Below, piece after piece: positions 3-23,786 of a stretch of 64,000 nt of DNA (within the stretch, counting starts at the first letter, position 1; each line of letters starts with the position of its first letter). Under the pieces are notes generated by a model, which was given only the letters and a program-made list of their open reading frames with translations, did not search any database and was not told the DNA's origin. This DNA comes from a virus: IMG/VR virus record IMGVR_UViG_3300050014_000619; one strand, 5' to 3'. A program made the translations under genes and the position numbers.

Positions 3-140
3 AATGACGGTGCAGCACCTGTTTGGAAAATAAAAAAGATTCTGCTTGATGGCACTGTGTGGAAATTTCAATTTCCTAACGGTGATCAATCATATTCTTT
101 TGTTTGGGATGACAGAATTAGTGGATATACATATCAATAA
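3..140 (+). CDS. 3' end of a small putative virion protein (partial, starts before the window)
   Basis: Frame 3 is open to TAA at 138-140 (NDGAAPVWKIKKILLDG...FVWDDRISGYTYQ) and is followed by a terminator. Confidence 0.6.
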   Translation, partial: NDGAAPVWKIKKILLDGTVWKFQFPNGDQSYSFVWDDRISGYTYQ

Positions 141-8300: not shown

Positions 8301-9074
8301 TTACTGGTCGGCTTCGAACCTGAAGTAAGCAAAGCAATACTTGCAAAGATCGTTAAGGATAAGAAAACCAAAGAAGTTGACTTGAAATGTGGTGGTGAGA
8401 ACTACGCATCATATGATTTAAAACTTAAGAATTTCGATTTAAATGATTTGGATGAATCAATGTATTTGGAAACCAAAGAGGTTGAATTCTGGAATAGAAC
8501 GGGTTATGACCCAAGAAAAGTCTGGACAGGTTTTAAGATGTATGATGACAATAGGGTTTATTATGAAATTTACGATCATGCACTCAATCATCTGAATACT
8601 TTAATGGCAGCAAAGAATCTTCCAAAGATCAAGTCAATTAATGAAGAATATGGTGAAGGTGATATGGTCTTAATTAAAAATGAAAAGATTTTTAGTGTTG
8701 GAAAGCATAATGGAACATTCATTGAAATCATCAGACCAGTGGTTGAGATACCAAAATGTGAACTGGAACTCGAACTCGATAAGAAAAAAGCCGAAGAAGA
8801 AGAGAAAATCAGAAATCTTGAAATGACGTTGATCGCCAAAACAGAGGAAGAGAAAAAAATCGAATTACAGAAGTTAAAACGTGAACAGTATTTTGATAGG
8901 TTCAAGAGACGAATGAACGCACCTGAATTAATGACAATTGATGATTTTTTCCGTGATGAATCAGAAGCAGGTGATATGTTGGATTACTATATAAGTCAAA
9001 TGGAAGGAGAGGATGAGGATGATTCAGAAAATCCTGACGATGAAAATGATGATGGCGGTGACGGTGCATATTAA
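5382..9074 (+). CDS. polB: Family B DNA polymerase with 3'-5' exonuclease
   Basis: Exo I FDCETTG, Exo II GFNSEMFD, Exo III YLLDD; pol A DYASLYP, B KILNNSLFG, C AVTDG. Confidence 0.93.
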   Translation: MSKMNKLQVLAEIKGFLEGYNNDLKYLVNVETDPTTNIADCIIHEPNKEKKIVKMRYEPFVYVKDLEKLGRTLYEGYSQEYIESKKIKYGITITKLKTGNQKRLVDGYCYKVTSSKSNNAIINYFKDGGIDTFLKVVDADGNIVKDKKTGKPKYVNRELFQSPSTTEQFFISTQSRLYKGFEEYKQVHKLTFDCETTGLRYAMARLFAIGVRDNRGFETILEVEKINDNDAEIKLIQMFFNLIHELKPAVIAGFNSEMFDFEFILGRAKLLGMDLTLLPTGLKADVSLKRRPNTSVKYGNTADKYTATQMWGYSVIDILHAVRRTAAVNSEIKENKLKYIAKLEKIAKPNRTYIAGEDNQIGRFYSENKVFVIDENNNYCQIPNEYQEVAKNLYKLQANRAKLTDDEYKAYRTTYLTGSEKFIKWFREEALVKKMNKFIGGKTLLRQYLLDDLWETEQVDELYNQSSFMLAKIVPTTYQRICTMGTAAIWNLLMTAWSYENDIAIPHCDVNMKFSGGLARCYKSGFSKRIIKIDYASLYPMLQLTWDIFPIFDITGVMKKILLYLTTTRNIYKKLANITDLNTEEVDLLRQIDPEMYVKYVQKAFTPEDIAMFKIKQLPIKILNNSLFGALGSGISFNWSDNVCAARITCCGRIELRHAINWFSKYKCVALLAVTDGINFQYPETTNIGFNDSGEVPVGVDTPIEQAWQYGGKTGINALILKFNKEEMRAPYMSVDNDGESISCLNLSRINYATLALAKDKKSGEMKEKIKLTGNTIKSKVMPGYIQEFIDKGLELILHDKGKEFVDYYNEYAKLLYYRQIPLRKIASKSRIKSTINQYKKRGNDKNGRAKGKQAHMELLIAKRNKIAEEVFQKYKGSLLFVKAEEKLTIEDKLKLVNDYMPPEPELDSVVYFVNTGTKISDSNSGIMKDKVTGEEKFCAAIITADDMLENPDMKGEYNIAKYLNAFNKRVKSLLVGFEPEVSKAILAKIVKDKKTKEVDLKCGGENYASYDLKLKNFDLNDLDESMYLETKEVEFWNRTGYDPRKVWTGFKMYDDNRVYYEIYDHALNHLNTLMAAKNLPKIKSINEEYGEGDMVLIKNEKIFSVGKHNGTFIEIIRPVVEIPKCELELELDKKKAEEEEKIRNLEMTLIAKTEEEKKIELQKLKREQYFDRFKRRMNAPELMTIDDFFRDESEAGDMLDYYISQMEGEDEDDSENPDDENDDGGDGAY

Positions 9075-9083: not shown

Positions 9084-9092
9084 GTATTTATA
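9084..9092 (+). promoter_or_regulatory. GTATTTATA putative late-promoter motif
   Basis: 24 nt before the ATG at 9108. Confidence 0.65.
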
Positions 9093-9107
9093 TGAAAATA
9101 TGTACTA

Positions 9108-9728
9108 ATGAAATTTACAAAAGCTCAGATAAATGAGATCATCGATTCAAACGGTGAGCTAATTGGTAAAAATGACGTACCATCAACTGGTAGCGACTTA
9201 GAGTCAGCAGCAAATAATACAACAGACTATAACCAAAAAATTGGTCAGCAACCATTTAGGTATGACATGTTGGGTCGTTTCGGCTTCACAATGATGCCGT
9301 TTATGGAAGGTAAGGAAAGTCAGGAACAGCTTGAATTAGTGAAAGACCTGAAAGAACTTATGCATCAGAGATTTATGGATATCGCTGGATATTATTACAA
9401 AAATCCTGAGAAATTGAAATCAGATTATAGAAGACAAGACGGTGGTGAACACACCAAAGAATGTGAAAAACTCGATGCGGAATACGCAAATAAGATTATG
9501 GCTGTAATACGCAAACATTTCGAGAAAGCATTTGAACCTAACAATATTGATGAATCTGCTGTTGTTGAAGACAAGGTTGTTGACAAGAAAACTGAAGACG
9601 AAATGTCCAGCAAAGCTGAAGATAAAGAAGTACAGGAAAAAAAACTTGAAAAGATCGCTGGTTTAATTAGTAAACTCGATCAAGAAGCTAAAGATAAACT
9701 TAAAAACCTACTGGAAAGAAATGGCTAA
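9108..9728 (+). CDS. Hypothetical acidic protein, possible head-internal protein
   Basis: 206 aa; INE, FME, IDE candidate processing sites; late-type motif upstream. Confidence 0.6.
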   Translation: MKFTKAQINEIIDSNGELIGKNDVPSTGSDLESAANNTTDYNQKIGQQPFRYDMLGRFGFTMMPFMEGKESQEQLELVKDLKELMHQRFMDIAGYYYKNPEKLKSDYRRQDGGEHTKECEKLDAEYANKIMAVIRKHFEKAFEPNNIDESAVVEDKVVDKKTEDEMSSKAEDKEVQEKKLEKIAGLISKLDQEAKDKLKNLLERNG

Positions 9729-10497
9729 TCAACAATTGTACGATAAAACGTATACAATACCCCCAGAAGTGCTTAATGGCATACAGGTGGCAAAAGCATC
9801 GAGTTCTAATGGAAATGGTCTTAAACGAGCTAATTTCATCCTTAAAAACGGTGCAATGCCTTATACTGCATTGGTGAAACTCAAACATGATTTTGATAAT
9901 AATAATTTTACGGATGCTAAACAATATGCTCTTGCTGGCGGTGATCAGATGAAAGCATTTATTGAAAAAACTCTTGCTGCAGATCGAAATGCTGTTGAAC
10001 AGTCGAAAACAATTAAACAGGACATGACTACTGACCCGAATTCAGAATTAGCACCATACCAAACGCCCAGACTGAATGAGGAAGATAAAAAGAAAAAGGA
10101 ATTAACGAAGAATGTTTGTGCTGTAATTGTTGATAAAGACGATAAGATATTATTACTCAAACGTGCATCTACTCCAAAAATCTGGATGCCTTCGAAATGG
10201 GCATTAGTTGGTGGTGGCATTGAAAAAGATGAAACACCTTTACAGGCAATCAAAAGAGAGATAATGGAAGAGATTGGTCTGGAGATCGATAAGTTTGTTA
10301 AAACCTTCACAATACAAAGACATGAAAGCAGTGTCGAACACATATTTGCATGTCGTTATGAGGGTGAACCAACTGATATTAAATTAAATGAAGAGAATAC
10401 TAACTATGGATGGTATGATGTGGATGAAATGCAGTATTTGGATACTGTACCGCATTTATTGGAATATATTACATTAACATTTGTAAAATACGATTAA
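9721..10497 (+). CDS. Nudix hydrolase with N-terminal extension
   Basis: Nudix box GGIEKDETPLQAIKREIMEEIGL; ILLLKR. Confidence 0.88.
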   Translation: MANQQLYDKTYTIPPEVLNGIQVAKASSSNGNGLKRANFILKNGAMPYTALVKLKHDFDNNNFTDAKQYALAGGDQMKAFIEKTLAADRNAVEQSKTIKQDMTTDPNSELAPYQTPRLNEEDKKKKELTKNVCAVIVDKDDKILLLKRASTPKIWMPSKWALVGGGIEKDETPLQAIKREIMEEIGLEIDKFVKTFTIQRHESSVEHIFACRYEGEPTDIKLNEENTNYGWYDVDEMQYLDTVPHLLEYITLTFVKYD

Positions 10498-10500
10498 TTC

Positions 10501-10509
10501 GTATTTATA
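10501..10509 (+). promoter_or_regulatory. GTATTTATA putative late-promoter motif
   Basis: Intergenic, upstream of 10546. Confidence 0.6.
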
Positions 10510-10545
10510 TATAAATAATATTAACAAAATTAAAAACAAAATAAA

Positions 10546-10806
10546 ATGGCAGATAATACAACAGACCCAAGCAGACTTCTTGCTAATAGTGTACAGTTCA
10601 GAGATAAAAATGTTGCGAAGAATCGTTACAAAACCAACAACGAATATGTTGCTGGTCATCCAGACGCATTATCCACAGGTGATGAATTGGGTAAAGACGA
10701 ATTAAATGGTAATACTGGTAGTGCAACTGATATTAAAGAAAGACAAAAAGAAATTGTCAAAAACAAATTTAATTCAAACAGAACATATAACGCAAGCAAC
10801 GCATAA
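10546..10806 (+). CDS. Hypothetical protein
   Basis: 86-aa hydrophilic ORF; TAATG coupling to the next gene. Confidence 0.65.
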   Translation: MADNTTDPSRLLANSVQFRDKNVAKNRYKTNNEYVAGHPDALSTGDELGKDELNGNTGSATDIKERQKEIVKNKFNSNRTYNASNA

Positions 10807-11732
10807 TGTTGAGTGAGGCTAAAATACTGTTCGAGAATATCAGACATTTTCGCCAGCTTCTTAGCGAAGCTGTTAGCGATAGTGTAATCGTTGATGCAAT
10901 TAACGAGCATAAATATCTTTATATTTATTATGAAGGTGAGACAACTCAAGAAACTGGTTATCGAACAATCAGACCATTCGTTTTAGGTAAATTGAAAAAC
11001 GGTAATTTAGCACTGAGAGCTTGGCAGGATAAGGGTAGAAGTGATAGTCTCAGGGCAGATTCTCCAAGAAACAGATTACATCACGAACATGAATTTGATG
11101 AAGGCAAAACAAAACCGGGTTGGCGTTTATTCCTTGTTGATAACATTAAATCAGCATATCCTACTGGTGTGAAATTTAATAAAAAAGATGGTAGCGTAAT
11201 GATACCGACTGGTTATAAAGAGCATGATAAGTCAATGACTGGTGGAATCGTTGCATTTATTTCGGCAAATGGTAGAGAAGAAATGCAAGCAAGTGGTACA
11301 ACAGGTACAACTACACAAAAAATTCCGAGATACGAGAAGTTCAAGAATGCCGATATTAATAAGAGGAAACTCACGAAAGCTGATGTCATTGGTTTATACG
11401 ATATTGCTACACGTGTTATGAAAAAATCAATTAATAGGTTCTTTGTATCAATTGATGATCAGAATTATTATTACTTACAGGATAAGAATATTAAAGCCAG
11501 ATTTCCACAGAATGCAATTGTTGGTGATCTTGATGTATTATATGATCAGTTTGTAAGAAAACAGCCACAAGAGCCACAGCAATTGAGCCAGACTGATGCT
11601 TATATGAAACAGGAATTGGATAAACTTGCTAAGAGTACAGCAGCAAATAATGCAAAAACACCTGAAGAACAAAAAATGATGAAAGAAAATGAAAAATTCC
11701 CTGTTGACAAAAGGACCTTTTTCAAAATCTAA
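10806..11732 (+). CDS. WYL-domain protein without HTH
   Basis: IYYEG...RTIRPFVLG...LRAWQ...GWRLFLVDNI pattern. Confidence 0.72.
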   Translation: MLSEAKILFENIRHFRQLLSEAVSDSVIVDAINEHKYLYIYYEGETTQETGYRTIRPFVLGKLKNGNLALRAWQDKGRSDSLRADSPRNRLHHEHEFDEGKTKPGWRLFLVDNIKSAYPTGVKFNKKDGSVMIPTGYKEHDKSMTGGIVAFISANGREEMQASGTTGTTTQKIPRYEKFKNADINKRKLTKADVIGLYDIATRVMKKSINRFFVSIDDQNYYYLQDKNIKARFPQNAIVGDLDVLYDQFVRKQPQEPQQLSQTDAYMKQELDKLAKSTAANNAKTPEEQKMMKENEKFPVDKRTFFKI

Positions 11733-11733
11733 C

Positions 11734-11742
11734 GTATTTATA
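11734..11742 (+). promoter_or_regulatory. GTATTTATA putative late-promoter motif
   Basis: 31 nt before the ATG at 11765. Confidence 0.65.
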
Positions 11743-11764
11743 AAAAAATATAAAATTTTATAAA

Positions 11765-12430
11765 ATGGCAAAACCCGATTTAAATAAACTAAAAAACGAA
11801 ATTGATAGTCGTAAAAGGGAAAGAAATACTACCTTAACACCTAATGGTGAAAATATTGCACCACGTGATGTATTTCTTAACGGCTTGCTTGAATCATATA
11901 AGACTGGTAGAGAAACTACTGCAAGTGCATTAGTTAAGACCGTTAATAACAAAGCTGCTGCAAAGAGTGGTGAAAAAAATCTTCAAATTACTGAAGCACC
12001 AGTACAACAGCCACAGCAACCACAAGGCACTCCAAGAAGAATAACTGATGTTGATATGTCACCTGAAAGGGATGAATTATTATGGGCAGAAGTTGAAAGA
12101 AAGAAAAAAATGACATTGGCTGAACAGATTGGTGATTTCAGGAATACACCACCAGTGGGCGCACCAATGAATAACAATGTTAAACAGCCATCTGCTCTCA
12201 ATGAGGTATATTTAACAGAGAACATGAAGAAATACATGGATAATTATCTGGTTGAAAATCTGGGTCCTGTTTTCGAAGAAGCTATTAAAGGTACAATAAT
12301 TGAAATGTACGCTGCAGAACGAATCAAAGAAGTTCTGGCAGAGAATAAAGATATGATAAAAGAATTGGTCAAAGAAACCATTCGAGAAATTCAAAAAGCT
12401 AACGCAGATAAAAAGAAAGCACAATCTTAA
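11765..12430 (+). CDS. Hypothetical protein, possible head core/internal protein
   Basis: 221 aa; LLES, ITE, LNE, LTE sites; helical C-terminus. Confidence 0.6.
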   Translation: MAKPDLNKLKNEIDSRKRERNTTLTPNGENIAPRDVFLNGLLESYKTGRETTASALVKTVNNKAAAKSGEKNLQITEAPVQQPQQPQGTPRRITDVDMSPERDELLWAEVERKKKMTLAEQIGDFRNTPPVGAPMNNNVKQPSALNEVYLTENMKKYMDNYLVENLGPVFEEAIKGTIIEMYAAERIKEVLAENKDMIKELVKETIREIQKANADKKKAQS

Positions 12431-12446
12431 TTGTGCTTTCTTTTTT
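12410..12446 (+). terminator. Intrinsic terminator
   Basis: AAAAGAAAGCACAAT-CTTA-ATTGTGCTTTCTTTTTT. Confidence 0.85.
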
Positions 12447-12451
12447 GATAG

Positions 12452-12466
12452 TAAGTTTGTATTTAT
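12452..12466 (+). promoter_or_regulatory. Overlapping TAAGTTTG (-7 box) and GTATTTAT motifs
   Basis: TAAGTTTG 12452-59 shares its G with GTATTTAT 12459-66, upstream of the 1441-aa gene. Confidence 0.55.
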
Positions 12467-12489
12467 GAATATAGTATAAATCTTCGATA

Positions 12490-15400
12490 ATGGTTAAACT
12501 AAAAATATTCGAATTATACAACAATGCCGATGGAAATGACGATATGCTTTCTGATATCGGTAATGTTGGCATGGAAGTAAGACAAGGCATGTGGACATTT
12601 ATGCCTGATAGAGTTGGCGATAATAGTCCAGCAATTCAAGAAGACGAAAATTTTAAATCTCCACAGGTAGACCAAGGTGTGTTAAAAAATCACGCATATG
12701 CCAGAGAATTAGCATATACTTTTGCAAGAAAAATTGGCATACAAATAACAAAAGATTTGGGTGGCGGTGGAAATGGACGTGCATTCGAAATTAGTCCAGA
12801 AGTTGTGCTAAAATTAACTACCGATGTCAGTGAAGTAGATGCTGCAATTAAAACGCTTAGAGAAGAACCAAAACATCTTGCTGAGATTTATGGAATTTAT
12901 AAACTCATTGATACTGAGAAAAATGCATCGTTATATGCCATACTTCAAGAGCACATTCAAGAAAAACCATTGGAAAAATTCAGGGAATATAATAAAATAA
13001 TAAATGCTATTATGCCAAGTGGTCTGGGACTTGAAGATTTTTTTGGTTTAATGAGATTACCTAAAAAATTTAATTATAGTGATTTAGCTGAAAAAGCAAA
13101 ATTACTTCTTACAGATACTCCAGAAGCGAACATTAATGAACAAGATAGAAAGGAAGCATATAATTATCTTATTGCATTACTTGATATAAGACAGGAATTA
13201 ATTGATTATGGTATTAAATCAACTGACTATTGGACTATTGCAAATCTTGGATATGATAAAGGTATATTAAAATATTTTGATGTCGGTGGATATGTTGCAC
13301 CAAAACCAGAAATTCCAAAAGATCATGTGGTAACGTTGCCTGAAGATGGTAGCGCAAAATTTAGCACAGATAATGGTATTGGTCAAGATGATGAACCACC
13401 ATATGATAACAATGACACTTCACCCTCAATAGAAAATGATCTCAATGCAAATTTAAATATGCGTGAAGATTTGGAATACAATCACGTTAGTGATGCAACA
13501 CAAGATCAATACGAGCTTGATGAAAGACAATTATCTTCAATGGCTGGAAGCAGTACTGTTGAAGTTAAACAGAAATGCAGATTAGCTGGAAATGGCAATA
13601 CTTCAACCGCTTGCAATCAGGGTGATATAAGAAATCTGAATATCAAGCCATTGCATGAAAGTGCAAGTCTTAATATACCCGAAAATCTCAGTGGATATGA
13701 TTCACTTAAAATAATGAATGGTGATCAGACTGTAGGTGAGGTTGGAATTATGGACAGAGGTGTACATGGTGGAAATCATTATATTGCAATTGACAAAATC
13801 TTTATTAATAAGGAATTTAGGGGTAACGATTATGCAAATGATGCAATGAAATTGATTTTTGCTTATGCTGATAAAAATAATTTAATTGTTACCTTGACAC
13901 CAGATAATATCTGGGGTGCAAGTGTACCAAAGTTAAAAGCATGGTATAAATCACTGGGATTTATTGAAAATAAAGGCAAGAAAAAAGATTTCCAGACTAT
14001 GCAGTTAATGTATAGATTACCAAAAACTCCTACAAATCTCAATGAAGACATTGACCCTAAAACAATTAATACAAACAGAAGGGCAATATATTCCGTAATT
14101 ACTGGCAAAAGAAAATTGGCATTTGGTGAAGTTGATAAGCCATTAGGACAGGCAATTGAGAAAAGAGGTTTTGGTATAATACCAGTGAGAATGACTTCAC
14201 GTCATGGTATGATGAGCATAGTTTATAATAAAGATTCATATGAAAATGCAAGAAAACTTTATGAAATAGCTAAGACGCATGGTGATTATCTTACAGATAA
14301 TACGGCAAGTGAAGCTCGTGAAATAGGTAGATTATTAGAATATAAAGAAGAAAGTATTGCAGAATATATAAAACAGAAATATGGTGACAGAGCATTATCT
14401 ACACATGAAAAATCACCAGAAGACTTCGATGATCTTTCTGAAGATATGGATTTTTGGGATTTGAATGATTTAAATGAAGAGAACTTTCCAGCATTCGAAA
14501 AACAAATCGAAAAAGATGAAATTACTCACGGTCTTGATAAAAAAGTTCTTTATGAACAAGATGATTTTAAAGTATGTGTAGTTAATGGCGATGCTGTCAG
14601 AGGTAATGGTTTTGATGAATGGGTAGATGGTGGTCATCATTATGTAGATGCTGATTTACCGAAAGACGAACAAAAATACGCTAAATTTATTCCAGAGGAT
14701 GAAATTTGGATTGATGACGTATTTTTATCAAAACCAAATGATATGGCAGCAATTATACTTCATGAAAAACTCGAAAGATATTTAATGAAGAATTATGGTA
14801 TTGAATACGAAAATGCACACACAGATTATGCAAATAAAGCAGAAGTTGTCTTCAGAAAATTAGTTAAGGATGGTACTGGCTCACTTATAAGCCAGAAAAT
14901 TTTCGATGCATTTGTAAATAAATTTATACAAGACCATTCCGATAAAAAAGTTCATGAAGGAGTAGCAGATGTAGCTGCAGATAAACAGTTTGGTATACAA
15001 CAACCACATGCGGGTTTTGAAGACAAATTCAACAGGGAAGAAAATGAAGAAGATGTAGTCTTTGCTGGTGATACTGATGGTATGATAATAATAAGAAATC
15101 CCAAATCATGGAAAAACATATATGGCTATGTTAGGGGAATTATTGACCCAGAAGGTAATCTTTATATTCAACAAAAACCCGTAGGCATTCACTTTGAAAT
15201 GCTTGAGGAATTGAATAAATTAGGACTTGTTGACAATGAAGCAGATTGGGATGAAAAATTACCAACGAACTTTCTTACAGTACAACGATATTTAAGGTCG
15301 AATAAAATTTTACTCGGTGAATCAAACTCACCAAGATATCCAGAACCAAGAGACCCAAATTCTATGTTTTGGAGCAAAATTCCACCAGTTGAGGTAGCTA

Positions 15401-16815
15401 TCCCATATTATCAGGCTTTCTTAGATAAGGCTAAAAAGAAAAATCCCAGCATGGATTTTATTAATGAGATAATAAGTACATATAGGAAACAGCATGAGAA
15501 TGATGAAACGTTTGGTGGTAATGATTTTAATGAAAATTTAAAAAATTCTGATAATCATAATGATTTATATGTAGAAAATGTTAACTTTGCAAAAAATGAT
15601 TCGATGAATGAGAATGAAATAATGTCATTAGATGATTTGCCTTTCAAAGATGATGTTGAACGTCAAGGCGGTAAGGTATATAGTGTTGGTGGTGCAGTAA
15701 GGGATAAATTTTTAGGTAAAGAATCTAAGGACTTGGATGTTATTGTTACTGGCATTCCACTTGATAAATTGGAGAGAATCATATCGAGATATGGTGTTGT
15801 TAACTCAGTTGGTAAATCATATGGTGTGTTGAAGTTCAAGCCACGTGGTGCTCCTGAAGACAGTGAAGATATTGATATTGTTATTCCACGTACAGATACC
15901 CCAACAGGCGGTGGTGGATATCAGGATTTTGATATTCAATCAGATCATACCATACCACTTGAAAAAGATTTGGAACGTAGGGACTTTACCATTAATGCAA
16001 TGGCAAGAGATAGAAATGGCGAAATAATTGACCCTTATGGTGGTCAGGAAGACCTGAAGAATAAAATTATTCGTGCAGTTAATCCCGAAGCATTTAGTGA
16101 TGACCCACTGAGAATGTTACGTGCTGTGCAATTTGCATGCCGTTTCGGTTTTACTATTGAGCCACACACAATGAAAATGATCAAAGACAATGTTGCGGAA
16201 ATCAAACGTATTTCTGCTGAAAGATACTTAATTGAATTTGATAAGATCATTAAAAAGGGCAATATAGTAATGGGTGTTGAACTACTTATGGAAACAGGCT
16301 TGTTTTCACAGATATTTAATGCACAGCCAAAAAATGTTACTCCTTTATTTGCCAAAGTTAAGACAATGGCTGAATTTCTTTATTTGCTTATGACTGGTTC
16401 TGTAAATAATCCTGCAGAATTCTATTTGGAACATTTTGCAAGTGATGAAGATGCAAAAAGAAGTAAGAACTACAAAGAGATTCGTGCACTTGAAACAGGA
16501 TTTGAAAGCGGTGAAGCAACAAACTTAATCGAAGCACGTTCAATTGCACATAATATGTATCTTATATTTCCACAAGTGTTGGAAAGCCAGATATTACCAA
16601 ACATAATCAGGGTTGCATCGCAGGAATTACTTCAAGGTAAATATCCTAAGACTGTGAATGAATTGGCGGTTAATGGTAATGATTTAATGGAACTTGGTTT
16701 ACAAGGTAAAGCAGTTGGTGATATGCAAAAATCATTATTATTGAAGATTTATTCAAATAAAGTTATGAATAATAAAGAAGATTTACTATCTTTGGCGGGT
16801 CAAAATGGAAAATAA
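12490..16815 (+). CDS. cca: Multidomain polyprotein: kinase-like, GNAT acetyltransferase, unknown, zincin-like, unknown, C-terminal class II tRNA nucleotidyltransferase (CCA-adding/poly(A) polymerase family)
   Basis: LGGGGNG/VLK/D...N/FDVG; FRGNDYA...WYKSLGF; LHEKLER...AH; VGGAVRD...DLD, RRDFTINAMA, DDPLRMLR, SAER. Confidence 0.85.
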   Translation: MVKLKIFELYNNADGNDDMLSDIGNVGMEVRQGMWTFMPDRVGDNSPAIQEDENFKSPQVDQGVLKNHAYARELAYTFARKIGIQITKDLGGGGNGRAFEISPEVVLKLTTDVSEVDAAIKTLREEPKHLAEIYGIYKLIDTEKNASLYAILQEHIQEKPLEKFREYNKIINAIMPSGLGLEDFFGLMRLPKKFNYSDLAEKAKLLLTDTPEANINEQDRKEAYNYLIALLDIRQELIDYGIKSTDYWTIANLGYDKGILKYFDVGGYVAPKPEIPKDHVVTLPEDGSAKFSTDNGIGQDDEPPYDNNDTSPSIENDLNANLNMREDLEYNHVSDATQDQYELDERQLSSMAGSSTVEVKQKCRLAGNGNTSTACNQGDIRNLNIKPLHESASLNIPENLSGYDSLKIMNGDQTVGEVGIMDRGVHGGNHYIAIDKIFINKEFRGNDYANDAMKLIFAYADKNNLIVTLTPDNIWGASVPKLKAWYKSLGFIENKGKKKDFQTMQLMYRLPKTPTNLNEDIDPKTINTNRRAIYSVITGKRKLAFGEVDKPLGQAIEKRGFGIIPVRMTSRHGMMSIVYNKDSYENARKLYEIAKTHGDYLTDNTASEAREIGRLLEYKEESIAEYIKQKYGDRALSTHEKSPEDFDDLSEDMDFWDLNDLNEENFPAFEKQIEKDEITHGLDKKVLYEQDDFKVCVVNGDAVRGNGFDEWVDGGHHYVDADLPKDEQKYAKFIPEDEIWIDDVFLSKPNDMAAIILHEKLERYLMKNYGIEYENAHTDYANKAEVVFRKLVKDGTGSLISQKIFDAFVNKFIQDHSDKKVHEGVADVAADKQFGIQQPHAGFEDKFNREENEEDVVFAGDTDGMIIIRNPKSWKNIYGYVRGIIDPEGNLYIQQKPVGIHFEMLEELNKLGLVDNEADWDEKLPTNFLTVQRYLRSNKILLGESNSPRYPEPRDPNSMFWSKIPPVEVAIPYYQAFLDKAKKKNPSMDFINEIISTYRKQHENDETFGGNDFNENLKNSDNHNDLYVENVNFAKNDSMNENEIMSLDDLPFKDDVERQGGKVYSVGGAVRDKFLGKESKDLDVIVTGIPLDKLERIISRYGVVNSVGKSYGVLKFKPRGAPEDSEDIDIVIPRTDTPTGGGGYQDFDIQSDHTIPLEKDLERRDFTINAMARDRNGEIIDPYGGQEDLKNKIIRAVNPEAFSDDPLRMLRAVQFACRFGFTIEPHTMKMIKDNVAEIKRISAERYLIEFDKIIKKGNIVMGVELLMETGLFSQIFNAQPKNVTPLFAKVKTMAEFLYLLMTGSVNNPAEFYLEHFASDEDAKRSKNYKEIRALETGFESGEATNLIEARSIAHNMYLIFPQVLESQILPNIIRVASQELLQGKYPKTVNELAVNGNDLMELGLQGKAVGDMQKSLLLKIYSNKVMNNKEDLLSLAGQNGK
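15582..15589 (+). promoter_or_regulatory. Possible internal -7 box upstream of the CCA domain
   Basis: TAACTTTG 14 nt before an in-frame ATG at 15604; -33 element is poor. Confidence 0.4.
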
Positions 16816-17746
16816 TAGAAAAGAAATATTGATTTGTAATGAATGTAATAAAGAATTTAATTCATTAAAAGGATTGAAAAATCATAATAGATACGGATGT
16901 AGTACCAAATTACATTCAAATTATTTTAAATATTGCCCAATATGTAATGAAATAATACATTATGAAAGTAAAACTAAATATGATTATGCAATTAAAAATG
17001 ATTCAAAATGCCATAAATGTGGTAATATTGGTAGAGAAGTGTCTGAAAACACAAAAATTAAAACATCTAAAACATTAAAAGAAAAATATGATAATGGCAC
17101 ACTAATTCCAAACATGATAGGCGCACATTCAAATGAATCAAGAAAAAAACAATCTGCAAAGAGAAAGAATTGTAAGTTAACTGAATCGCATAAATTAAAT
17201 ATTTCGATTGGTTTAAATAAATCTGAAAATTTTAAAATATCCGTACATTCAAAAGAAAGAGGTAATAAAATTTCAAAAAAATTAACAAATAAAAAATTTT
17301 CAAAAGAACATATCATTAAACTTTCTGAATCACATGCAAATGTTGCGAACGAAAATAATCCGTTTTATAATAAAAGTCATACTAATGAAGCTAAGAATAA
17401 AATGAGAATTAGTGCCATTGAAAGAATTAGATTAAATAAGTTTGAAAATAATCAAATAGTGCCGTTTTATAACAAAAGAGGTTGTGAATATTTTAATAAT
17501 CTAATGAAAATCAATAATTGTTTCATACAACACGCTGAAAATGGTGGTGAATTTTATATTAAGAAATTAGGATATTTTGTTGATGGATATGACGAAAAAA
17601 ACAATATTGTTTATGAATGGGATGAAAAACGTCATTTTCAAAAAGGTAAATTAATTGAAAGGGATATTATTAGAGAAAATGAAATTACCAATTTACTAAA
17701 ATGTGCTTTTATTAGAATTAAAGAAAGTGAGGTAAATAATGATTAA
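16805..17746 (+). CDS. Putative homing endonuclease: Zn fingers, NUMOD3 repeats, C-terminal PD-(D/E)xK/Vsr-like nuclease
   Basis: CNEC...H, CPIC, CHKC; HSNESRKKQS, HTNEAKNKMR; YFVDGYD...YEWDE. Confidence 0.78.
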   Translation: MENNRKEILICNECNKEFNSLKGLKNHNRYGCSTKLHSNYFKYCPICNEIIHYESKTKYDYAIKNDSKCHKCGNIGREVSENTKIKTSKTLKEKYDNGTLIPNMIGAHSNESRKKQSAKRKNCKLTESHKLNISIGLNKSENFKISVHSKERGNKISKKLTNKKFSKEHIIKLSESHANVANENNPFYNKSHTNEAKNKMRISAIERIRLNKFENNQIVPFYNKRGCEYFNNLMKINNCFIQHAENGGEFYIKKLGYFVDGYDEKNNIVYEWDEKRHFQKGKLIERDIIRENEITNLLKCAFIRIKESEVNND

Positions 17747-18344
17747 GAAAATTATAGTTGAGGAAATTAAAAAATTTTTCTTAAATGAATTTGCTTATCC
17801 TGAAATGAGACCAGAAGAAAAGAATACTTGGGACATAAATGGAGAAAATGTTGACATTAATTTCTTTGTACATAAATATGATGAATGGAATCATCAGGGT
17901 GGTGAAAATAGTGGTTATAAAGACCCTTCAGAAGCATCAGTGTTAGAATTTATAGAGAATAACTATGAAGATTTTACACATGATGAAAAATTAAAAAAAG
18001 AGTTGCTTTGGGCATTGACAGATCGAGAAGTTTTAAATGAGAATGAATCTAAATATAATAAAGAAAAAGAAGCATTAATGAAATCAAAAAGTATTGATGC
18101 TGAAATGAAAGAAAAGATTCTAAAATATTTTACTGCTGGTTCAACATATAAAGAAGGTGGACATGTACATGGTTTAAGCAAGCCAAAAGAATTAATGGAC
18201 AAAACATCTAAAACAGAAGGTGTTAGTATGGGTGCAGATAAAGACGGATTCTTTGTATATACACATCGTCAAAGGTCTAAGTCATATGAATCACCCGAAA
18301 AAATATCAATAAAAGACATTGAATTTACTGAAAGTACTGGCTAA
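17739..18344 (+). CDS. Hypothetical two-module protein with IIxEEI leader
   Basis: MIKKIIVEEIKKFFLNE leader; internal VLNENE linker. Confidence 0.65.
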   Translation: MIKKIIVEEIKKFFLNEFAYPEMRPEEKNTWDINGENVDINFFVHKYDEWNHQGGENSGYKDPSEASVLEFIENNYEDFTHDEKLKKELLWALTDREVLNENESKYNKEKEALMKSKSIDAEMKEKILKYFTAGSTYKEGGHVHGLSKPKELMDKTSKTEGVSMGADKDGFFVYTHRQRSKSYESPEKISIKDIEFTESTG

Positions 18345-19000
18345 TGAAAAAAGAAAAATTACTTAAAGAACAACAACGCAATAAATTACTCGAAGATTCG
18401 GGCATAAATCTTGTTCAAAATGCAAATTTATTGTCAATTGATATTCAACCAGAATATCAAAATGCATTTAATTTTCAATTGAGTAATTATATACGATTTT
18501 TAAATAGAAATTTTGATACTATGAATTCTCTTACATTTTTATATAATGGTGAGAATACTGTTGGTGGCGTAAGTGAAGGAGAATATAAAATGTGGTTAAT
18601 AGAAAATGGTATTAAAGAATCAATACTTGATTATGCCAGATTTTACGATAAAGGTTATGCATTTTTCAGAAGCTGTATGGATGATGGTCATGATGAAAAA
18701 GAAATTGTTAACTTAGTAAAATATATGATTAAACATGACATTAACGATAGTAGAGACATTGATGAAGAAATGTGGCAAGGTTTTATGACAGAATATGGAT
18801 ATGATTCAAGTGATGTTCGTGATTTTCTTGAACCAGCACAGGATTGCATTAATATACCAGATTTAATGGATTACTTACAAAAATTTTCTGGAAAAATAGT
18901 TATATGTGGCGGTGGAATAAACCAATGCTTTAAAGAAGTAGAAATTGCTTTAAATGCATTGGAAAAAATTTATAATGTTTTAACAAAATTTACTTATTAA
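18344..19000 (+). CDS. Isochorismatase/nicotinamidase-like cysteine hydrolase
   Basis: LLSIDIQ (Asp), DKGYAFF (Lys), ICGGGINQC (Cys) match the family's catalytic triad order. Confidence 0.6.
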   Translation: MKKEKLLKEQQRNKLLEDSGINLVQNANLLSIDIQPEYQNAFNFQLSNYIRFLNRNFDTMNSLTFLYNGENTVGGVSEGEYKMWLIENGIKESILDYARFYDKGYAFFRSCMDDGHDEKEIVNLVKYMIKHDINDSRDIDEEMWQGFMTEYGYDSSDVRDFLEPAQDCINIPDLMDYLQKFSGKIVICGGGINQCFKEVEIALNALEKIYNVLTKFTY

Positions 19001-19049
19001 TTTTATTATTGTATAAGTGTGAGTTACTAAATCCTATAAAGTATTTATT

Positions 19050-19193
19050 ATGAAAAGCAAAGACAAAACAAAAACAGTTACACCAATGGATGTAGCAAGA
19101 TTTGTTGGTGCTGAAAAAGACTATCAAGATGTTTTAAATAAGAATAGGGGTGCTTTGGTTGAAAATTTTTATAGCTTATTGAAAAAATTATGA
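19050..19193 (+). CDS. Small hypothetical protein (47 aa), not in the ORF track
   Basis: MKSKDKTKTVTPMDVARF...SLLKKL*; ATGA overlap with the 19190 gene; GTATTTAT at 19041. Confidence 0.5.
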   Translation: MKSKDKTKTVTPMDVARFVGAEKDYQDVLNKNRGALVENFYSLLKKL

Positions 19194-19573
19194 GTAATAT
19201 TTCTTATAGTGCAGTAGTTCTTGATGAAAGTTCAAGAAACCGATTAATCAGAAGATTCGAGTCATTAATACCCGAAGGCTGGGAAGTTGTTGCACATCAT
19301 GCCACAATAAAGTTGGGCGAACTTGACCCAAATGAAAAATGGATGATTAATGAAGAAATTACATTGAGTGTAAATGATTTTGCAATGGATGATAAGGTTA
19401 TGGCAGTTGGTGTTAGTGGCTCTGAAAGCCACAATGCCAAGCCACATATAACCATTGCTGTAAATCGACAAGCGGGTGGTAAACCAATGATGTCGAATAA
19501 ATTAATTGACTGGAAAAAAATAAGAGTTCCCTTGGTGATAAGAGGAATCGTGACTGAAGTTGAATATAAGTAA
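19190..19573 (+). CDS. 2H phosphoesterase (tRNA-ligase cyclic phosphodiesterase-like)
   Basis: Two HxT motifs, HHATI and PHITI; KPMMSN. Confidence 0.82.
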   Translation: MSNISYSAVVLDESSRNRLIRRFESLIPEGWEVVAHHATIKLGELDPNEKWMINEEITLSVNDFAMDDKVMAVGVSGSESHNAKPHITIAVNRQAGGKPMMSNKLIDWKKIRVPLVIRGIVTEVEYK

Positions 19574-19574
19574 A

Positions 19575-20171
19575 ATGAGTAATGATGAGTATGTTGCAAA
19601 AAAACAGCAAAAAGATTTTGAAGAAGGTAAAAAACCACAAAAATTATTCGCAGATTTAATGCAGAAGAACGGGTTTCGCTGTTATAGCGCAACCAGTTAT
19701 CAAGATAAATATGAACATTGGGATATCCTGACTGTTGAAGACCTTGGAAATGGTACGAAAGTTTTTGAACGTTCGGACATAAAAGGTCTAAAGAACTGTG
19801 TAAAAGAAGGTTTCGAATGGATGGAATTACAAACAATCGATGGAAGAATGGGTTGGTTGTATTCGGAATTTACAGATAATATAATATTTGAAATTGAAGA
19901 TTGCTTTCTTTTCATAAAAAGAGCAGAATTACTTCCAATCATTGTAGCAAATGTAGCAAAGATGGACAAATTGGATGAAGAAGATGGGGAACGTCCACCA
20001 GTAGTTCATGTGATAAAAGACGGTCTTAAATATTATCAGAGGTACTGTAGAATATTGTGGGGTAATACAGATATAACTGTTATGTCACCATTTACGGATT
20101 TTCAGCATTTAATTTATATGAAACTATATAAAGCAGACGGTAAAATAGAAAAATTTAATAGAAAACAATGA
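19575..20171 (+). CDS. PD-(D/E)xK-like nuclease-fold protein
   Basis: QDKYEHWD...DIKG...WMEL...GWLY; probable ATG at 19575. Confidence 0.5.
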   Translation: MSNDEYVAKKQQKDFEEGKKPQKLFADLMQKNGFRCYSATSYQDKYEHWDILTVEDLGNGTKVFERSDIKGLKNCVKEGFEWMELQTIDGRMGWLYSEFTDNIIFEIEDCFLFIKRAELLPIIVANVAKMDKLDEEDGERPPVVHVIKDGLKYYQRYCRILWGNTDITVMSPFTDFQHLIYMKLYKADGKIEKFNRKQ

Positions 20172-20191
20172 AAAGATTGGCAGTATTTGAT
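20168..20191 (+). pseudogene. Orphaned original 5' end (MKRLAVFD) of the HAD gene
   Basis: ATGA-coupled to the upstream stop; peptide matches IKRLSVFD at 21277-21300; ends exactly at the LAGLIDADG stop codon. Confidence 0.75.
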
Positions 20192-21201
20192 TATATGTAC
20201 TTAAAAGAATATCCTTTACAATGTTTTCTATCCCCCCTAGTAACTCTTTGTATACTTTCATATTTTACATTAATTTTATTGGATGCTTCATGTATATTAT
20301 TAAATGTTTTAATATAATTATTTGATATATAATCATACATTTCTATTTTACGTAAATTTGGGGTTCTATCATACGTTCCTATTTTATATTCTTTAAGTGT
20401 TTGGAATAAATTATATTTTCTTGTAAGTCTAAGATTTTCGGAATCTTCGTAAATATTATTTTTTAATATTAAAAGGTCTTTATATGAATTATATTTTAGT
20501 ACTACAAGCCTATTATTATTTGAAGAATATTTGGTGATACTTACTTTAGTGTTTGATAAACCATATAAATTAAAACTTTTCTTTATCTCAGTAATTAAAT
20601 TTTCTGAACCGATAATTGAAAAACATAATGCACCATTCTTTCTCTTTTTTTCTTTATTAATTGATCCATCCCCATCGAAAACACCACGTATGAAGTGCCA
20701 AAAATATTCTTGAGGTATGTCAGGCATTATACAATTAAATGACTTATTTGAGTGAACACCTAATTTATTGAGATCATTAACAATTTCTTTAGATGCTATT
20801 TGTAGAGAATAGCGTGTATATGTTTTATTGGTTCTTTTATCAAAGACATTATATTTGGCTAATTTATGCTCGGATTTAATTTCCCTTTTTAACATATCAA
20901 CTAACTCGATGTCTCTTGAAGTTAAAACTAACTTATATCGGTTATCAACATATCCATCAGATATAATCAAGCCCAATAAATATGCTTTATTTTTAGCATT
21001 AATAATTTTGAAAAATTCGGTATTAATTTTATATCTTCTATTATTACCGTCATGTGATTTATTGTTTATTGTGTATCCATGCTTTTTTAATTGATATTTA
21101 ATGGTTGAATACGAAACATTAATAATTTTTGAAATTTTTGTTATTGTATAATTTTCATTAAAATAATAATGAGCAATTTGATTAATATCATATTTATTCA
21201 T
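20191..21201 (-). mobile_element. LAGLIDADG homing endonuclease (two motifs, N-terminal HTH, C-terminal NUMOD1) inserted into the HAD gene
   Basis: YLLGLIISDG and FIRGVFDGDG; TFNNIHEAS...GYSFKY; likely start MNKYD at 21201. Confidence 0.85.
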
Positions 21202-21208
21202 ATCTTTG
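21177..21208 (+). promoter_or_regulatory. Consensus Bacteroidota-type promoter for the HAD gene, antisense within the endonuclease 5' end
   Basis: TTTG(21177-80)-N20-TATCTTTG(21201-08). Confidence 0.65.
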
Positions 21209-21224
21209 TATTTATAATAAATAC
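21208..21224. promoter_or_regulatory. Palindromic pair of GTATTTAT motifs (bidirectional)
   Basis: GTATTTAT-A-ATAAATAC between the divergent endonuclease and HAD starts. Confidence 0.65.
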
Positions 21225-21249
21225 TTATAATTTCGAATAATATAACCTT

Positions 21250-21846
21250 ATGACTACGGAAAAACACAAAAATACAATTAAACGCCTCAGTGTCTTTGAT
21301 CTGGATGCGACAATTCTTGACACTCCAACACCAGAAGAAGGAAAAAAAATATGGGAAAAATATTACAAAAAGCCATTTTCATATAAGGGTTGGTGGAGTA
21401 AGCCAGAGAGCCTTGATACTGAAGTATTCGATATTAAACCTTTTCCAGCAGTTCTGGCAGAACTTAATAAAGAAAAAGCAACACCTGACACTGCTGTTAT
21501 TATCTTAACATCAAGAGTGGAAAGATTACGTCCACAGGTTGAGAACGTGCTTAAACTCAATAATATTTCCGTAGATGATGTTCTATTGAAAAATAGTAAT
21601 GAAGATAAGGGTGATATTATTTTAAAAATCTCAGTTTATAATCCAGACCTTCGAGAAATCGTAGTGTATGATGACTTTATGGAAAAAAATGAAGCTAAGA
21701 TTCAGGAATATACGAAAATCATCGGTGAATTATCACCAGAGATTCAATATACTTTGTATTATGTTGACAACGGTAGGATTACTTTACTGGAATCCACTAA
21801 TATAATATTGAAAATGATATCAGATGAAATTCGAAAATTAATTTAA
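21250..21846 (+). CDS. HAD-family phosphatase, Swiss-Army-Knife RNA-repair type
   Basis: VFDLDAT...TP, GWW, LTSR, LLK, VYDD motifs. Confidence 0.8.
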   Translation: MTTEKHKNTIKRLSVFDLDATILDTPTPEEGKKIWEKYYKKPFSYKGWWSKPESLDTEVFDIKPFPAVLAELNKEKATPDTAVIILTSRVERLRPQVENVLKLNNISVDDVLLKNSNEDKGDIILKISVYNPDLREIVVYDDFMEKNEAKIQEYTKIIGELSPEIQYTLYYVDNGRITLLESTNIILKMISDEIRKLI

Positions 21847-21848
21847 AC

Positions 21849-21857
21849 GTATTTATA
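21849..21857 (+). promoter_or_regulatory. GTATTTATA putative late-promoter motif
   Basis: 22 nt before the ATG at 21871. Confidence 0.6.
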
Positions 21858-21870
21858 GTAAAATATTTGA

Positions 21871-22605
21871 ATGGGACTATGCTCAAATAAGGAAAAATTT
21901 ATTATTGCTGCACAAATAAAGCATAATAGCAAATATGACTATTCCAAAGTAGTATATGTTGGTAACAAAGATAAAATAACAATTATTTGTCCTAAACATG
22001 GTGAATTTTCACAGAGACCAAATGATCATTTAACTGGATATGGCTGTAAGAAATGCCAATACGAAAAAATCTCAAAAGAAAATAAATTTACAAATAATAT
22101 TTTTATTGAAAAGGCAAATAAAAAACATAATAATACATATGATTATTCATTAGTTAAATATAATGGATATGAAAATAAAATTACTATTATTTGTAAAAAG
22201 CATGGTGAGTTTAATCAATCGCCACATGCACATTTGGGTGGCGCAGGATGCCCTAAATGTAAAGAATCTTTTGGTGAGAAAAAAATTGCAGAAATCTTAT
22301 TAAAATATAATATTCAATTTGAAAGAGAGAAAACATTTAAAGATTTAAAATACAGAGCTAACTTATATTATGATTTTTATTTACCAAATCATAAAGTATT
22401 TATTGAATATCATGGAATACAACATTTTGCGCCAGTAAAATTTTTTGGCGGTAAAAATGCGCTTATTGAAACAAGAAAACGTGATATAATTAAATTGAAG
22501 TATGCTATAAATAATAATTATTTGTTAATTTCATTATATAATATTCCAATAAAACATATGGATGAATTATTAACGAAAGCATTAAACTATAAATCAATAA
22601 TATGA
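21871..22605 (+). CDS. Putative homing endonuclease (DUF723-like Zn repeats plus Vsr/PD-(D/E)xK)
   Basis: Two YDYS...ICxKHGEF...HL.G.GC.KC repeats; YDFYLP...IEYHG.QH. Confidence 0.8.
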   Translation: MGLCSNKEKFIIAAQIKHNSKYDYSKVVYVGNKDKITIICPKHGEFSQRPNDHLTGYGCKKCQYEKISKENKFTNNIFIEKANKKHNNTYDYSLVKYNGYENKITIICKKHGEFNQSPHAHLGGAGCPKCKESFGEKKIAEILLKYNIQFEREKTFKDLKYRANLYYDFYLPNHKVFIEYHGIQHFAPVKFFGGKNALIETRKRDIIKLKYAINNNYLLISLYNIPIKHMDELLTKALNYKSII

Positions 22606-23426
22606 GCAGGATATCACCAAAATATTTACCACAAGTGGGTGCACCAATTGATTTAATTTTTGAAAAACTTATTGAAAATGACTGTGAGTATATGAACATT
22701 CAAATGAATCCTAATGAACTACAATCATCGCAACCATTTACATTATCCGATGATGTTCACACTGCAGTAAACGATGATATGCATCCTATATGGATTGATA
22801 ATGAAATGAAAATTATTGACGGTCATCATAAATGGGTTAAAGCACTACTTGATAACACACCAATATTTGTTGTTAAATTAAGTATGGATTTTAAAAATGC
22901 TGCAAGACTTTTAAATAAGATTCAAGATATATATGAATATGAACAGCATCAAGGAATGGAAGAAGTGGAAGCACAAGATGCAATCAACATGGATAATCAA
23001 GCAGATTCAGGCATTAGTGATAGTGAATTTCTTAATACATTAGAAGAAGATAATCTCAATGCACAATCAGGAGATACTTCAACTAACGGACAGGTAATCA
23101 TTGGCTATAGAAAAGACCCAATAAAAGAAAATTCAGTTATTGGTAATTTTTTTATGTTGAAACCCGTTGAGGGTTTTGATAAATATGAAATTGAATTTGA
23201 TAATTTACTTGATGTACATTCTCTGGGAGTCGTATACAAAGATGGTCAGAATCCCATAGACATTCTTTCAAAGGTTTGGTTTCCACATGTGAATTTTGAA
23301 AAATTAAGTCAACAATATAATATGCCAGTAGAAAACCTGAAGTGTAAAGCAATTGCAGAAAAAGCAGTTAAAATGGGCTATGATGGCATTAAATATGGCG
23401 ATACATTAGTACAAGGATTAAAATAA
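22602..23426 (+). CDS. ParB/Srx-like domain fused to a possible ADP-ribosyltransferase-like domain
   Basis: LQSSQ...PIWID...IIDGHHKW; acidic linker; GYR...GNFF...MGYDGIKY. Confidence 0.55.
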   Translation: MSRISPKYLPQVGAPIDLIFEKLIENDCEYMNIQMNPNELQSSQPFTLSDDVHTAVNDDMHPIWIDNEMKIIDGHHKWVKALLDNTPIFVVKLSMDFKNAARLLNKIQDIYEYEQHQGMEEVEAQDAINMDNQADSGISDSEFLNTLEEDNLNAQSGDTSTNGQVIIGYRKDPIKENSVIGNFFMLKPVEGFDKYEIEFDNLLDVHSLGVVYKDGQNPIDILSKVWFPHVNFEKLSQQYNMPVENLKCKAIAEKAVKMGYDGIKYGDTLVQGLK

Positions 23427-23432
23427 AAAACT

Positions 23433-23786
23433 ATGAATACATACAAAATTACAAACATAACAAATTTCGCAGGTAAGCGTGATTATAAATTCAATTCCGA
23501 TTTGGATATTGAGTACGTTGATAACATGATGAAAAAAACAGTTAAGGTTAAACCTAATCAAACAGTTTTCTTAACAGTTGAATCTCTTCCATTGTCTGTA
23601 CACAGACTTAGGGTAAAAAATTTAGTAACAGTTACTGAAGTCAGCAAAAACGAATTGGCTGGATTGATGGCAGAACAGAAAAAGCCTGTGCCAGTAGCAG
23701 CAGTAGTTCAGGTGGAAGTTCCTGAAGAAATGTCAGCAAATGAGATAAAGCCTATAAAGAGAAAGAAAAAAGATAACGAAGAGTAA
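23433..23786 (+). CDS. Hypothetical protein
   Basis: 117-aa ORF followed by a terminator. Confidence 0.65.
   Translation: MNTYKITNITNFAGKRDYKFNSDLDIEYVDNMMKKTVKVKPNQTVFLTVESLPLSVHRLRVKNLVTVTEVSKNELAGLMAEQKKPVPVAAVVQVEVPEEMSANEIKPIKRKKKDNEE

Follow-up and report, generated by a model that had tools for sequence, protein, structure and literature searches.

The 64,000-nucleotide (nt) stretch of the IMG/VR virus record IMGVR_UViG_3300050014_000619 analyzed here (the window) contains, on the + strand between a helicase–PolB operon (3244–9074) and a gene at 23989, a cluster of predicted enzyme genes, which raises the question of whether these enzymes serve only the cell in which they are made or are carried in the phage head into the next one. 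A preliminary description of positions 9084–23786 had proposed the latter: the enzymes would be made late, packaged, matured in the head by cleavage after (I/L)xE in the manner of the T4 prohead protease gp21, and injected. Here, we show that the joints at which modules have been shuffled in the giant protein of this cluster carry an [L/I/V]-x-E motif with single-residue precision and with specificity for Glu, and we weigh the proposed delivery in the light of this signal.

The giant protein is encoded at 12490–16815 (+) and comprises 1441 amino acids (aa). It is composed of a leader extending to E51, a kinase-like module (residues ~58–285), a linker, a GNAT module (~411–500), two unnamed modules (520–1041) and a CCA-adding enzyme (1042–1441), with joints at LPE285, LHE390, LNE519 and MNE1041. 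The terminal domain matches PF01743 (E 2e-20) and displays the GGAVRD, DLD and RRD motifs together with an RNA-binding domain, as in class II CCA-adding enzymes and poly(A) polymerases; specificity for CCA rather than poly(A) is predicted. The GNAT module gives a weak match in the window protein and is Pfam-annotated in homologs, and the kinase-like module is recognized by a Gly-rich loop and a VLKL motif only. The zincin that the preliminary description had placed in this chain is not supported: the protein lacks HExxH and has no Pfam match to a zincin, and residues 640–1040 have no atlas match.

The length of the giant protein varies between 488 and 2688 aa across relatives, with 1776 aa in the locus L119, because modules have been acquired, lost, doubled or split off. 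In a complete relative of 357 kb (G001), CCA, x201, 2H and HAD modules lie in one 1507-aa chain, and in the locus L002 and others 2H is fused to the giant protein; therefore, the separate 2H and HAD genes of the window are pieces of one array, split here by homing endonucleases. A database search yielded 106 homologs of 800–2400 aa on contigs of up to 355 kb, among which CCA, GNAT, 2H, ParB, NleE-like and ART-PolyVal domains are mixed. ART-PolyVal (PF18760) is a precomputed annotation on at least 12 of these homologs and was undetected in the window giant protein and in the orthologs of the ParB-ART protein of the cluster. The giant protein belongs to the class of polyvalent proteins (Iyer et al. 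2017).

A breakpoint was scored wherever, in comparisons among the 106 homologs, a homology block started or stopped within both partner sequences, which gave 1260 starts and 1439 ends. Block starts fall exactly on P3 of [ILMV]xE (P1 at offset +2) at a frequency of 0.21 versus ~0.03, and block ends fall exactly on the Glu (P1) at 0.20 versus ~0.02, while [ILMV]xK and [ILMV]xD show no signal at breakpoints and the Lys, Asp and Asn junction controls are flat. Among non-redundant junction windows, the motif is present in 402 of 790, compared with 179 ± 11 in composition-matched shuffles, and the junction logo reads [L 0.41 / I 0.34 / V 0.18]-[N 0.35]-E. A smaller test on relatives of the cluster gave 16/20 versus 10.8 ± 2.1 (P 0.006), again for Glu only. 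The joints of the window protein are themselves recurrent breakpoints: 38 block ends fall at LPE285 and 21 at LHE390, and 26 block starts at LNE519 and 23 at MNE1041, the last being the start of the CCA module. A signal that is Glu-specific, exact to the residue and degenerate at P3 (L/I/V) argues for protein-level selection for a T4-type protease motif.

A second concentration of such sites is found in h221 (11765–12430, +), a helical, non-enzymatic protein encoded immediately before the giant gene, in which 12 of 13 [ILMV]xE sites are conserved. Ranking the proteins of each complete genome by their [IL]xE excess relative to composition placed the scaffold-position protein first and the h221 ortholog second in G001; h221 came first in two further genomes (G003 and G005), and overall it ranked first or second in three of four proteomes. 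The excess in h221 is 3.1× expectation for Glu and 0.92× for Lys (22 orthologs), and that in the scaffold 1.99× for Glu and 0.85× for Lys; in both proteins it is limited to Glu and to i+2 spacing. At the h221 sites P3 and P1 are conserved, and P2 is free to vary. A weak Glu bias was seen in the capsid protein (1.7×), the ParB-ART protein (1.5×; Lys 0.87×) and the 2H protein (1.5×; Lys 0.48×), and no Glu excess was found in replication and tail proteins. The possibility that h221 and the scaffold are paralogs was ruled out by an hhalign probability of 0.2% for their homology. We consider h221 a candidate for a prohead-core protein, a protease substrate or a cargo adaptor, the putative helper role resting on motif density and gene linkage.

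The window corresponds to places 19666–83398 of an 83.4-kb viral contig with a CheckV completeness of ~25%, which is a fragment without the head module. With the conserved gene 23989–25371 as the query, 80 related loci were returned, several of them on contigs of 325–365 kb and some with terminal repeats. G001 is syntenic with the entire window at a protein identity of ~40–85%, and gene order is kept across family genomes (G001, G003, G005 and G022) even though their GC content varies from 25% to 40%. The stretch represents a conserved module within a T4-like jumbo phage family with genomes of ~325–365 kb. The head module of this family is of the T4 type, with a gp23-like capsid protein (E 2.5e-64) and a gp20-like portal (E 3.6e-65); in G001, which has a sheath-like open reading frame (ORF), the Pfam sheath model gave no match and the terminase match is weak. 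A gp21-type Peptidase_S77 protease exceeds the Pfam cut-off in 5/5 complete relatives (in G001, the ORF covering 227320–227787), and an HK97-type S78 protease was found in 0/5, in line with the appeal of the preliminary description to a gp21-type enzyme cutting at (I/L)xE. By capsid, the closest cultured phages, Flavobacterium phage immuto and Microcystis phage Mel-JY01, reach only ~32% identity, and therefore no relative could supply a virion proteome. The cluster had no megablast match among cultured phages, tblastn of A206 (the first gene product of the cluster) and ParB-ART likewise gave none, and the WYL protein matched uncultured megaphages only. The host is probably a member of the Bacteroidota, because TAnnTTTG promoters are used and no Shine-Dalgarno sequences are present, and probably lives in soil; the contigs come from peat and soil samples.

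Genes of the cluster share an upstream element, GTATTTAT, of which the window contains 28 copies (7.4 ± 2.6 expected), 25 of them on the + strand. It lies 22–51 nt before start codons, often straight after a hairpin and T-run, lacks a -35 element, as T4 late promoters likewise lack such a partner, and has an AAA at +11..13. The copy at 9084–9091 (+) opens the cluster, and others stand at 10501, 11734, 12459, 19041, 21208, 21849 and 23938; the seven positions quoted in the preliminary description, from 9084 to 21849, all exist, and the link it drew to baseplate genes is borne out by a further copy before a gp25-like baseplate gene (27826). Within the window the element also heads two large structural ORFs, a RuvC unit and an HNH–endolysin unit, while the helicase–PolB, primase, SbcC and exonuclease units carry a Bacteroidota-type TAnnTTTG box instead. 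In G001 it is located upstream of the portal ORF, the probable terminase, the scaffold-position ORF (5' of the capsid gene), the sheath-like ORF and an ORF of 1695 aa that contains a lysozyme. Orthologs in five genomes spanning a GC content of 25%–40% have it at a conserved position, including 5/5 each for A206, s86 and h221. Because GTATTTAT is common to portal, terminase, scaffold and baseplate genes, while core replication operons use TAnnTTTG, we read it as a late promoter class, from which late timing of the cluster is predicted. The alternative of a generic promoter was dropped, since the core replication operons consistently carry the other box.

Three sigma-70-type factors are encoded in G001 and one in the window, at 46363–47046 (+). 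The latter is an extracytoplasmic function (ECF)-like sigma factor gene with recognizable regions 2 and 4, which overlaps the 3' end of the primase gene within a host-promoter (TAnnTTTG) unit; its product is a candidate reader of the GTATTTAT promoters. Two more conserved upstream motif classes, [T/A]CGTATA[A/T] and TTGTAACAA, occur in G001, G003, G005 and G022 and suggest a multi-stage transcription programme; neither is used in the window.

The order PolB, A206, Nudix, s86, WYL, h221, giant protein, 2H, HAD, ParB-like, x117 is conserved in 21 relatives. A206 (9108–9728, +) is a non-enzymatic protein with the leader MKxxKxx[LI]xE followed by a conserved IIDSNGELIG; its N-terminal half is disordered and precedes a helical hairpin (AlphaFold2 model with a predicted local distance difference test score, pLDDT, of 63). 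The two-domain Nudix hydrolase (9721–10497, +), whose gene was found in 30/30 records searched, consists of a conserved N-terminal domain, the sequence PR-LNE120, an indel-rich Lys/Glu linker and a Nudix domain (PF00293, E 4.6e-20) with a complete Nudix box, Gx5Ex7REUxEExGU, at residues 165–187. It is followed by s86 (10546–10806, +), a small conserved protein that forms tandem repeats in some relatives, and by the WYL-domain protein (10806–11732, +), with the leader ...L[LIV]xE21|[GA]V; the WYL match has E 0.057 in the window protein and is obtained with 7/17 orthologs, the best at 7e-5.

Downstream of the giant gene, a homing-endonuclease-like gene with NUMOD3 and zinc-finger matches (16805–17746, +) splits the polyvalent gene in comparison with fused relatives. 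Next come x201 (17739–18344, +), which in relatives is a module within the giant protein, and x218 (18344–19000, +), a sporadic gene present in 2/21 relatives besides the window, for which the cysteine hydrolase of the preliminary description is a weak lead only (isochorismatase/cysteine-hydrolase, 0.84). The 2H phosphoesterase (19190–19573, +; PF08302, E 8.6e-7) contains HHAT at residue 37 and HIT at residue 86. Between the GTATTTAT copy at 19041 and this gene lies a 47-aa ORF (19050–19193, +) whose stop overlaps the 2H start (ATGA) and which may be what is left of the linker found between 2H and the giant protein in relatives. A further gene, x203 (+), is listed between the 2H gene and an antisense LAGLIDADG homing endonuclease gene (20191–21267, -), which overlaps the start of the HAD gene. 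The latter (21250–21846, +) encodes a HAD_SAK_1/PNK-type phosphatase with a DLDAT motif at residue 17 (DxDxT motif I); the window protein reaches 22.2 bits, below the cut-off of 25.6 (E 1.3e-4), and 5/5 orthologs match, the best at E 1.3e-5. Five HAD orthologs (L118, L122, L123, L124 and L128) carry, after the conserved LxE181, an extra C-terminal domain of ~110 aa (YHGT ... FTS ... EW) that looks like an ART and is missing from the window HAD.

The cluster closes with an HNH homing endonuclease gene (21871–22605, +; phrog_559), the ParB-ART-like gene (22602–23426, +) and x117 (23433–23786, +), a conserved small protein. The N-terminal domain of the ParB-ART-like protein (DGHHK) has a confident ParB/sulfiredoxin-type fold (Z 6.7) with invariant DGHH. 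For its C-terminal domain (model pLDDT ~75), ART-fold matches recur at low Z of 2.6–5.0 (NatT 5.0, 6kyf 4.8, MbcT 4.2, diphtheria-toxin homologs 3.2–3.6), and none of 21 orthologs has a Pfam match; we call the domain ART-like. No usable match among PDB sequences was obtained in profile searches with A206, WYL308, h221, ParB-ART or the scaffold. Taken together, the Nudix, WYL, kinase-like/GNAT/CCA fusion, 2H, HAD and ParB-ART-like identities of the preliminary description stand, and the catalytic motifs are intact in the Nudix, 2H, HAD and CCA-adding domains.

Several features outside this order were recorded. The gene at 23989–25371 (+) is preceded by GTATTTAT; among its matches, a PHROG family with a glycosyltransferase annotation scores best (E 2e-32), and its "D5-like helicase" label comes from a weak Pfam match (E 0.005). 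Its ortholog in L124 (13455..) has 834 aa, with an insertion of ~373 aa exactly after residue 362 that looks like an intein or an in-frame mobile insert. The load of homing endonuclease genes (HNH phrog_559 family, NUMOD3, LAGLIDADG) is unusually heavy, at 16805, 20191 (-), 21871, 30905, 42023 and 58395 in the window and at 5294 of the contig, and several of them split or abut conserved genes. Another candidate for polyvalent cargo is the 863-aa protein encoded at 55348–57939 (+) downstream of a late motif, which contains DUF3008 and gives a weak OspG-kinase match; its 1318-aa ortholog in G001 has 21 [IL]xE sites against 12.1 expected (p 0.013).

Considering the gp21-type protease of the relatives, the motif in scaffold and capsid, and the presence of the same motif at the joints of a late-promoter array and, densely, in h221, we hypothesize that h221 and the enzyme array enter the prohead core, are cut there by the gp21-like protease, and release enzymes that are injected at the next infection; we would put this at close to an even chance. 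Host RNA polymerase with a phage sigma factor would probably read GTATTTAT and transcribe the module. The core of the cargo would be the modular polyvalent array of kinase-like, GNAT, two further and CCA-adding modules, with 2H and HAD in the same polypeptide in relatives. Once h221 and the array had entered the prohead core, the protease would cut at the [L/I/V]-x-E joints, and the freed enzymes would exit with the DNA at the next infection. The fusions that tie CCA, 2H and HAD together suggest a ligase-free healing of damaged tRNA 3' ends, in which the 2',3'-cyclic phosphate would be opened, the phosphate removed and the CCA rebuilt, while modification of host or signalling targets would fall to the Nudix hydrolase, the kinase-like module, GNAT and ParB-ART. 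A broader version of this hypothesis, which we regard as doubtful, holds that the prohead protease serves T4-like jumbo phages as a general means of unpacking: any enzyme module with [L/I/V]-x-E on its flanks could be built into an array, loaded via h221 as a dedicated scaffold-like adaptor, cut in the head and injected, and the cargo here, including the ligase-free 2H/HAD/CCA tRNA set, would act before phage gene expression and pre-empt tRNA-targeting abortive infection.

A number of observations weigh against packaging and injection. The leader and domain-boundary sites on which the preliminary description had partly relied are real and conserved (RLNE120 of the Nudix protein in 21/22 orthologs, LLSE21 of the WYL protein in 22/22, HAD LxE181 in 17/18 and A206 I-x-E10 in 21/21), and the 10-residue leader of A206 has the geometry of the T4 capsid-targeting sequence (CTS), with invariant residues 8 and 10 on either side of a free residue 9. 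Nevertheless, in a null set of 119 ortholog families from four complete genomes and this contig, scored for a fully conserved [ILMV]xE at positions 4–40, 31 families (26%) carry such a site, DNA polymerase PolB included. Glu is only ~1.4× as frequent at leader positions as Asp, Lys, Asn or Gln, and the rate in the cluster (2/~8) equals the background. Conserved N-terminal leader sites were therefore dropped as evidence of packaging; the junctions of the giant protein lie far above chance. The N-terminus of PolB (5382–5410) reads M-x-K-x-x-[IV]-L-x-E9 in all five genomes, which is the geometry of a T4 capsid-targeting leader, and served as the negative control.

Nor do most of the single enzymes lend support. 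Proteome-wide, [ILMV]xE occurs ~1.7 times per 100 residues, with a baseline excess over composition of 1.16× for Glu and 1.12× for Lys; the cluster without h221 gives 1.28× and 1.23×. The cluster-wide [IL]xE excess (z 4.5) was accordingly dropped as support for all enzymes, the Lys controls indicating that it comes mainly from h221. The preliminary description had offered enrichment at linkers versus replication proteins as a check: a Glu-specific excess is seen at the giant-protein joints and in h221, a weak bias in ParB-ART and 2H, and none in A206, Nudix and HAD or in replication proteins. The pieces split off by homing endonucleases have no obvious targeting leader, the module adjoins replication and baseplate genes, not head genes, the metallopeptidase (MPTase)/zincin of polyvalent proteins was not found in the 1441-aa protein, and no homolog in a cultured phage was found for A206, the WYL protein, ParB-ART or the N-terminal part of the giant protein. 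The repair of a whole tRNA pool may also be poorly served by a few injected enzyme molecules. Regarding timing, no intrinsic terminator was found between the early PolB operon and the cluster, and host-type TAnnTTTG boxes are fused to the late motif at 12452–12466 (TAAGTTTGTATTTAT) and 21201–21215 (TATCTTTGTATTTAT), before the giant gene and the HAD gene, on which both forms of the polymerase may thus act, so that these proteins may also be made early in the cytoplasm. The cluster has the promoter class of hallmark late genes, which core replication genes do not share, but its expression may not be purely late.

A rival view is that the enzymes act only in the producing cell, as a late and, via read-through, also early cytoplasmic kit for tRNA maintenance and counter-defence like T4 Pnk/Rnl, which would keep tRNA 3' ends intact during the late translation burst; the joints would then be punctuation for linkers and module exchange, and h221 an unrelated head-core protein or a structurally patterned helical protein. 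We find this less probable than packaging, though a serious contender. The CCA, 2H and HAD activities belong to the classic cytoplasmic RNA repair of jumbo phages (PMC7824862), the natural splitting of the array into separate genes indicates that modules function unlinked, and the missing terminator after PolB, the dual boxes at 12452 and 21201 and the absence of a Glu-specific excess from most single enzymes all suit it. It accounts poorly for a junction signal that is Glu-specific and residue-exact with a degenerate P3, for a motif density that h221 has in common only with the scaffold, and for a promoter class shared with virion genes. Cleavage and injection may also be uncoupled: a gp21-like or other Glu-specific protease could process the polyprotein at the [L/I/V]-x-E joints in the cytoplasm, late in the producing cell, with no injection. 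The punctuated junctions, the S77 protease of the relatives and single enzymes whose capsid-targeting leaders do not rise above background agree with such processing, but known S77 proteases are activated inside proheads, where they act on core and shell proteins (PMC9026906, PMC10052503), and the scaffold-like profile of h221 suits a location in the prohead core, so we consider it unlikely.

Finally, the signals might be incidental, with GTATTTAT serving as a phage promoter in general, irrespective of timing, and the xxE sites a product of composition and helix periodicity in AT-rich genomes whose proteins are rich in Glu, Leu and Ile. The frequency of [ILMV]xE throughout the proteome, the ~1.16× excess of all proteins over composition and the presence of GTATTTAT before the D5-like gene and the RuvC unit would be expected on this account; flat Lys, Asp and Asn controls at junctions, enrichment restricted to i+2 spacing in h221 and the scaffold, and the consistent use of another box by core replication operons would not. 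Already largely refuted by these controls, it appears very improbable.

Among known systems, the closest kinds are polyvalent proteins (Iyer et al. 2017) and T4 Alt with the internal proteins. For polyvalent proteins, packaging and delivery together with the DNA have been predicted (Iyer, Burroughs, Anand, de Souza, Aravind 2017, PMC5512222); they combine two to fifteen unrelated domains per polypeptide in architectures that vary between relatives, and the giant protein family fits this description, down to protein-kinase-like, GNAT, Pol-beta-type nucleotidyltransferase, 2H, ParB and ART modules in shifting orders. It differs in that the zincin MPTase, their proposed processing device and a frequent though not obligatory component, is replaced in our data by joints with the prohead-protease motif, and in that the nucleotidyltransferase is a genuine CCA-adding type that has tRNA-binding domains and, here, is joined to 2H and HAD. 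Host modification and the degradation of nucleotide signals, both discussed for polyvalent proteins and jumbo phages, would be fitting roles for the Nudix hydrolase, the kinase-like module, GNAT and ParB-ART. In T4, gp21 cleaves after L/I-x-E; it chops up scaffold and core proteins and removes the leaders of internal proteins and Alt, which are then ejected into the host (PMC9026906). In giant phages, many head and ejection proteins are cleaved after A/S-x-E by related proteases (PMC10052503). The present family resembles T4, with its IPI–III and Alt, in its T4-type head module with an S77 protease, in genes that are predicted here to be late by promoter class, and in the L/I-x-E motif, and the A206 leader resembles the capsid-targeting sequence of IPIII, a likeness limited by the fact that the leader pattern is unspecific and is carried by PolB too. 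There is no sequence homology, however, and the T4 internal proteins are small and basic with one N-terminal cut, whereas a multi-enzyme array with internal joints is predicted here.

A non-enzymatic protein beside very large multi-domain enzymes within a multi-gene set is also the arrangement of the Dar system of phage P1, to which the putative helper role of h221 would correspond. In Dar (DarA/Hdf/DdrA/DdrB/DarB/Ulx), very large multi-domain enzymes, one of them ParB-like, depend on non-enzymatic helpers for their loading into the head, to be used at the next infection, and the system protects DNA from restriction. The two sets share no homology, and the one described here would be directed at RNA ends and NAD/ADP-ribose chemistry instead of DNA protection. 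Our comparison follows, for DdrB, its description in PMC5512222. The RNA repair sets of jumbo phages, which include a CCA-adding enzyme, 2H and Nudix (PMC7824862), and T4 Pnk/Rnl have the same enzyme families and the same presumed purpose of undoing host attack on tRNA; unlike them, the present set contains no RNA ligase or 5' kinase and would serve 3' ends only, has a late-type promoter, and is built in a polyvalent, protease-punctuated architecture.

If the packaging hypothesis is true, a late promoter, a T4-type protease and Glu-motif joints would together form a simple rule for the proteins that giant phages inject, and the joints would explain how cargo evolves through module swapping. 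RNA repair would then join DNA protection and RNA-polymerase modification among the forms of injected counter-defence. The motif statistics would provide a purely computational predictor of capsid cargo in uncultured phages, and the joints could serve as natural cut-sites for the delivery of foreign proteins with T4-like phages.

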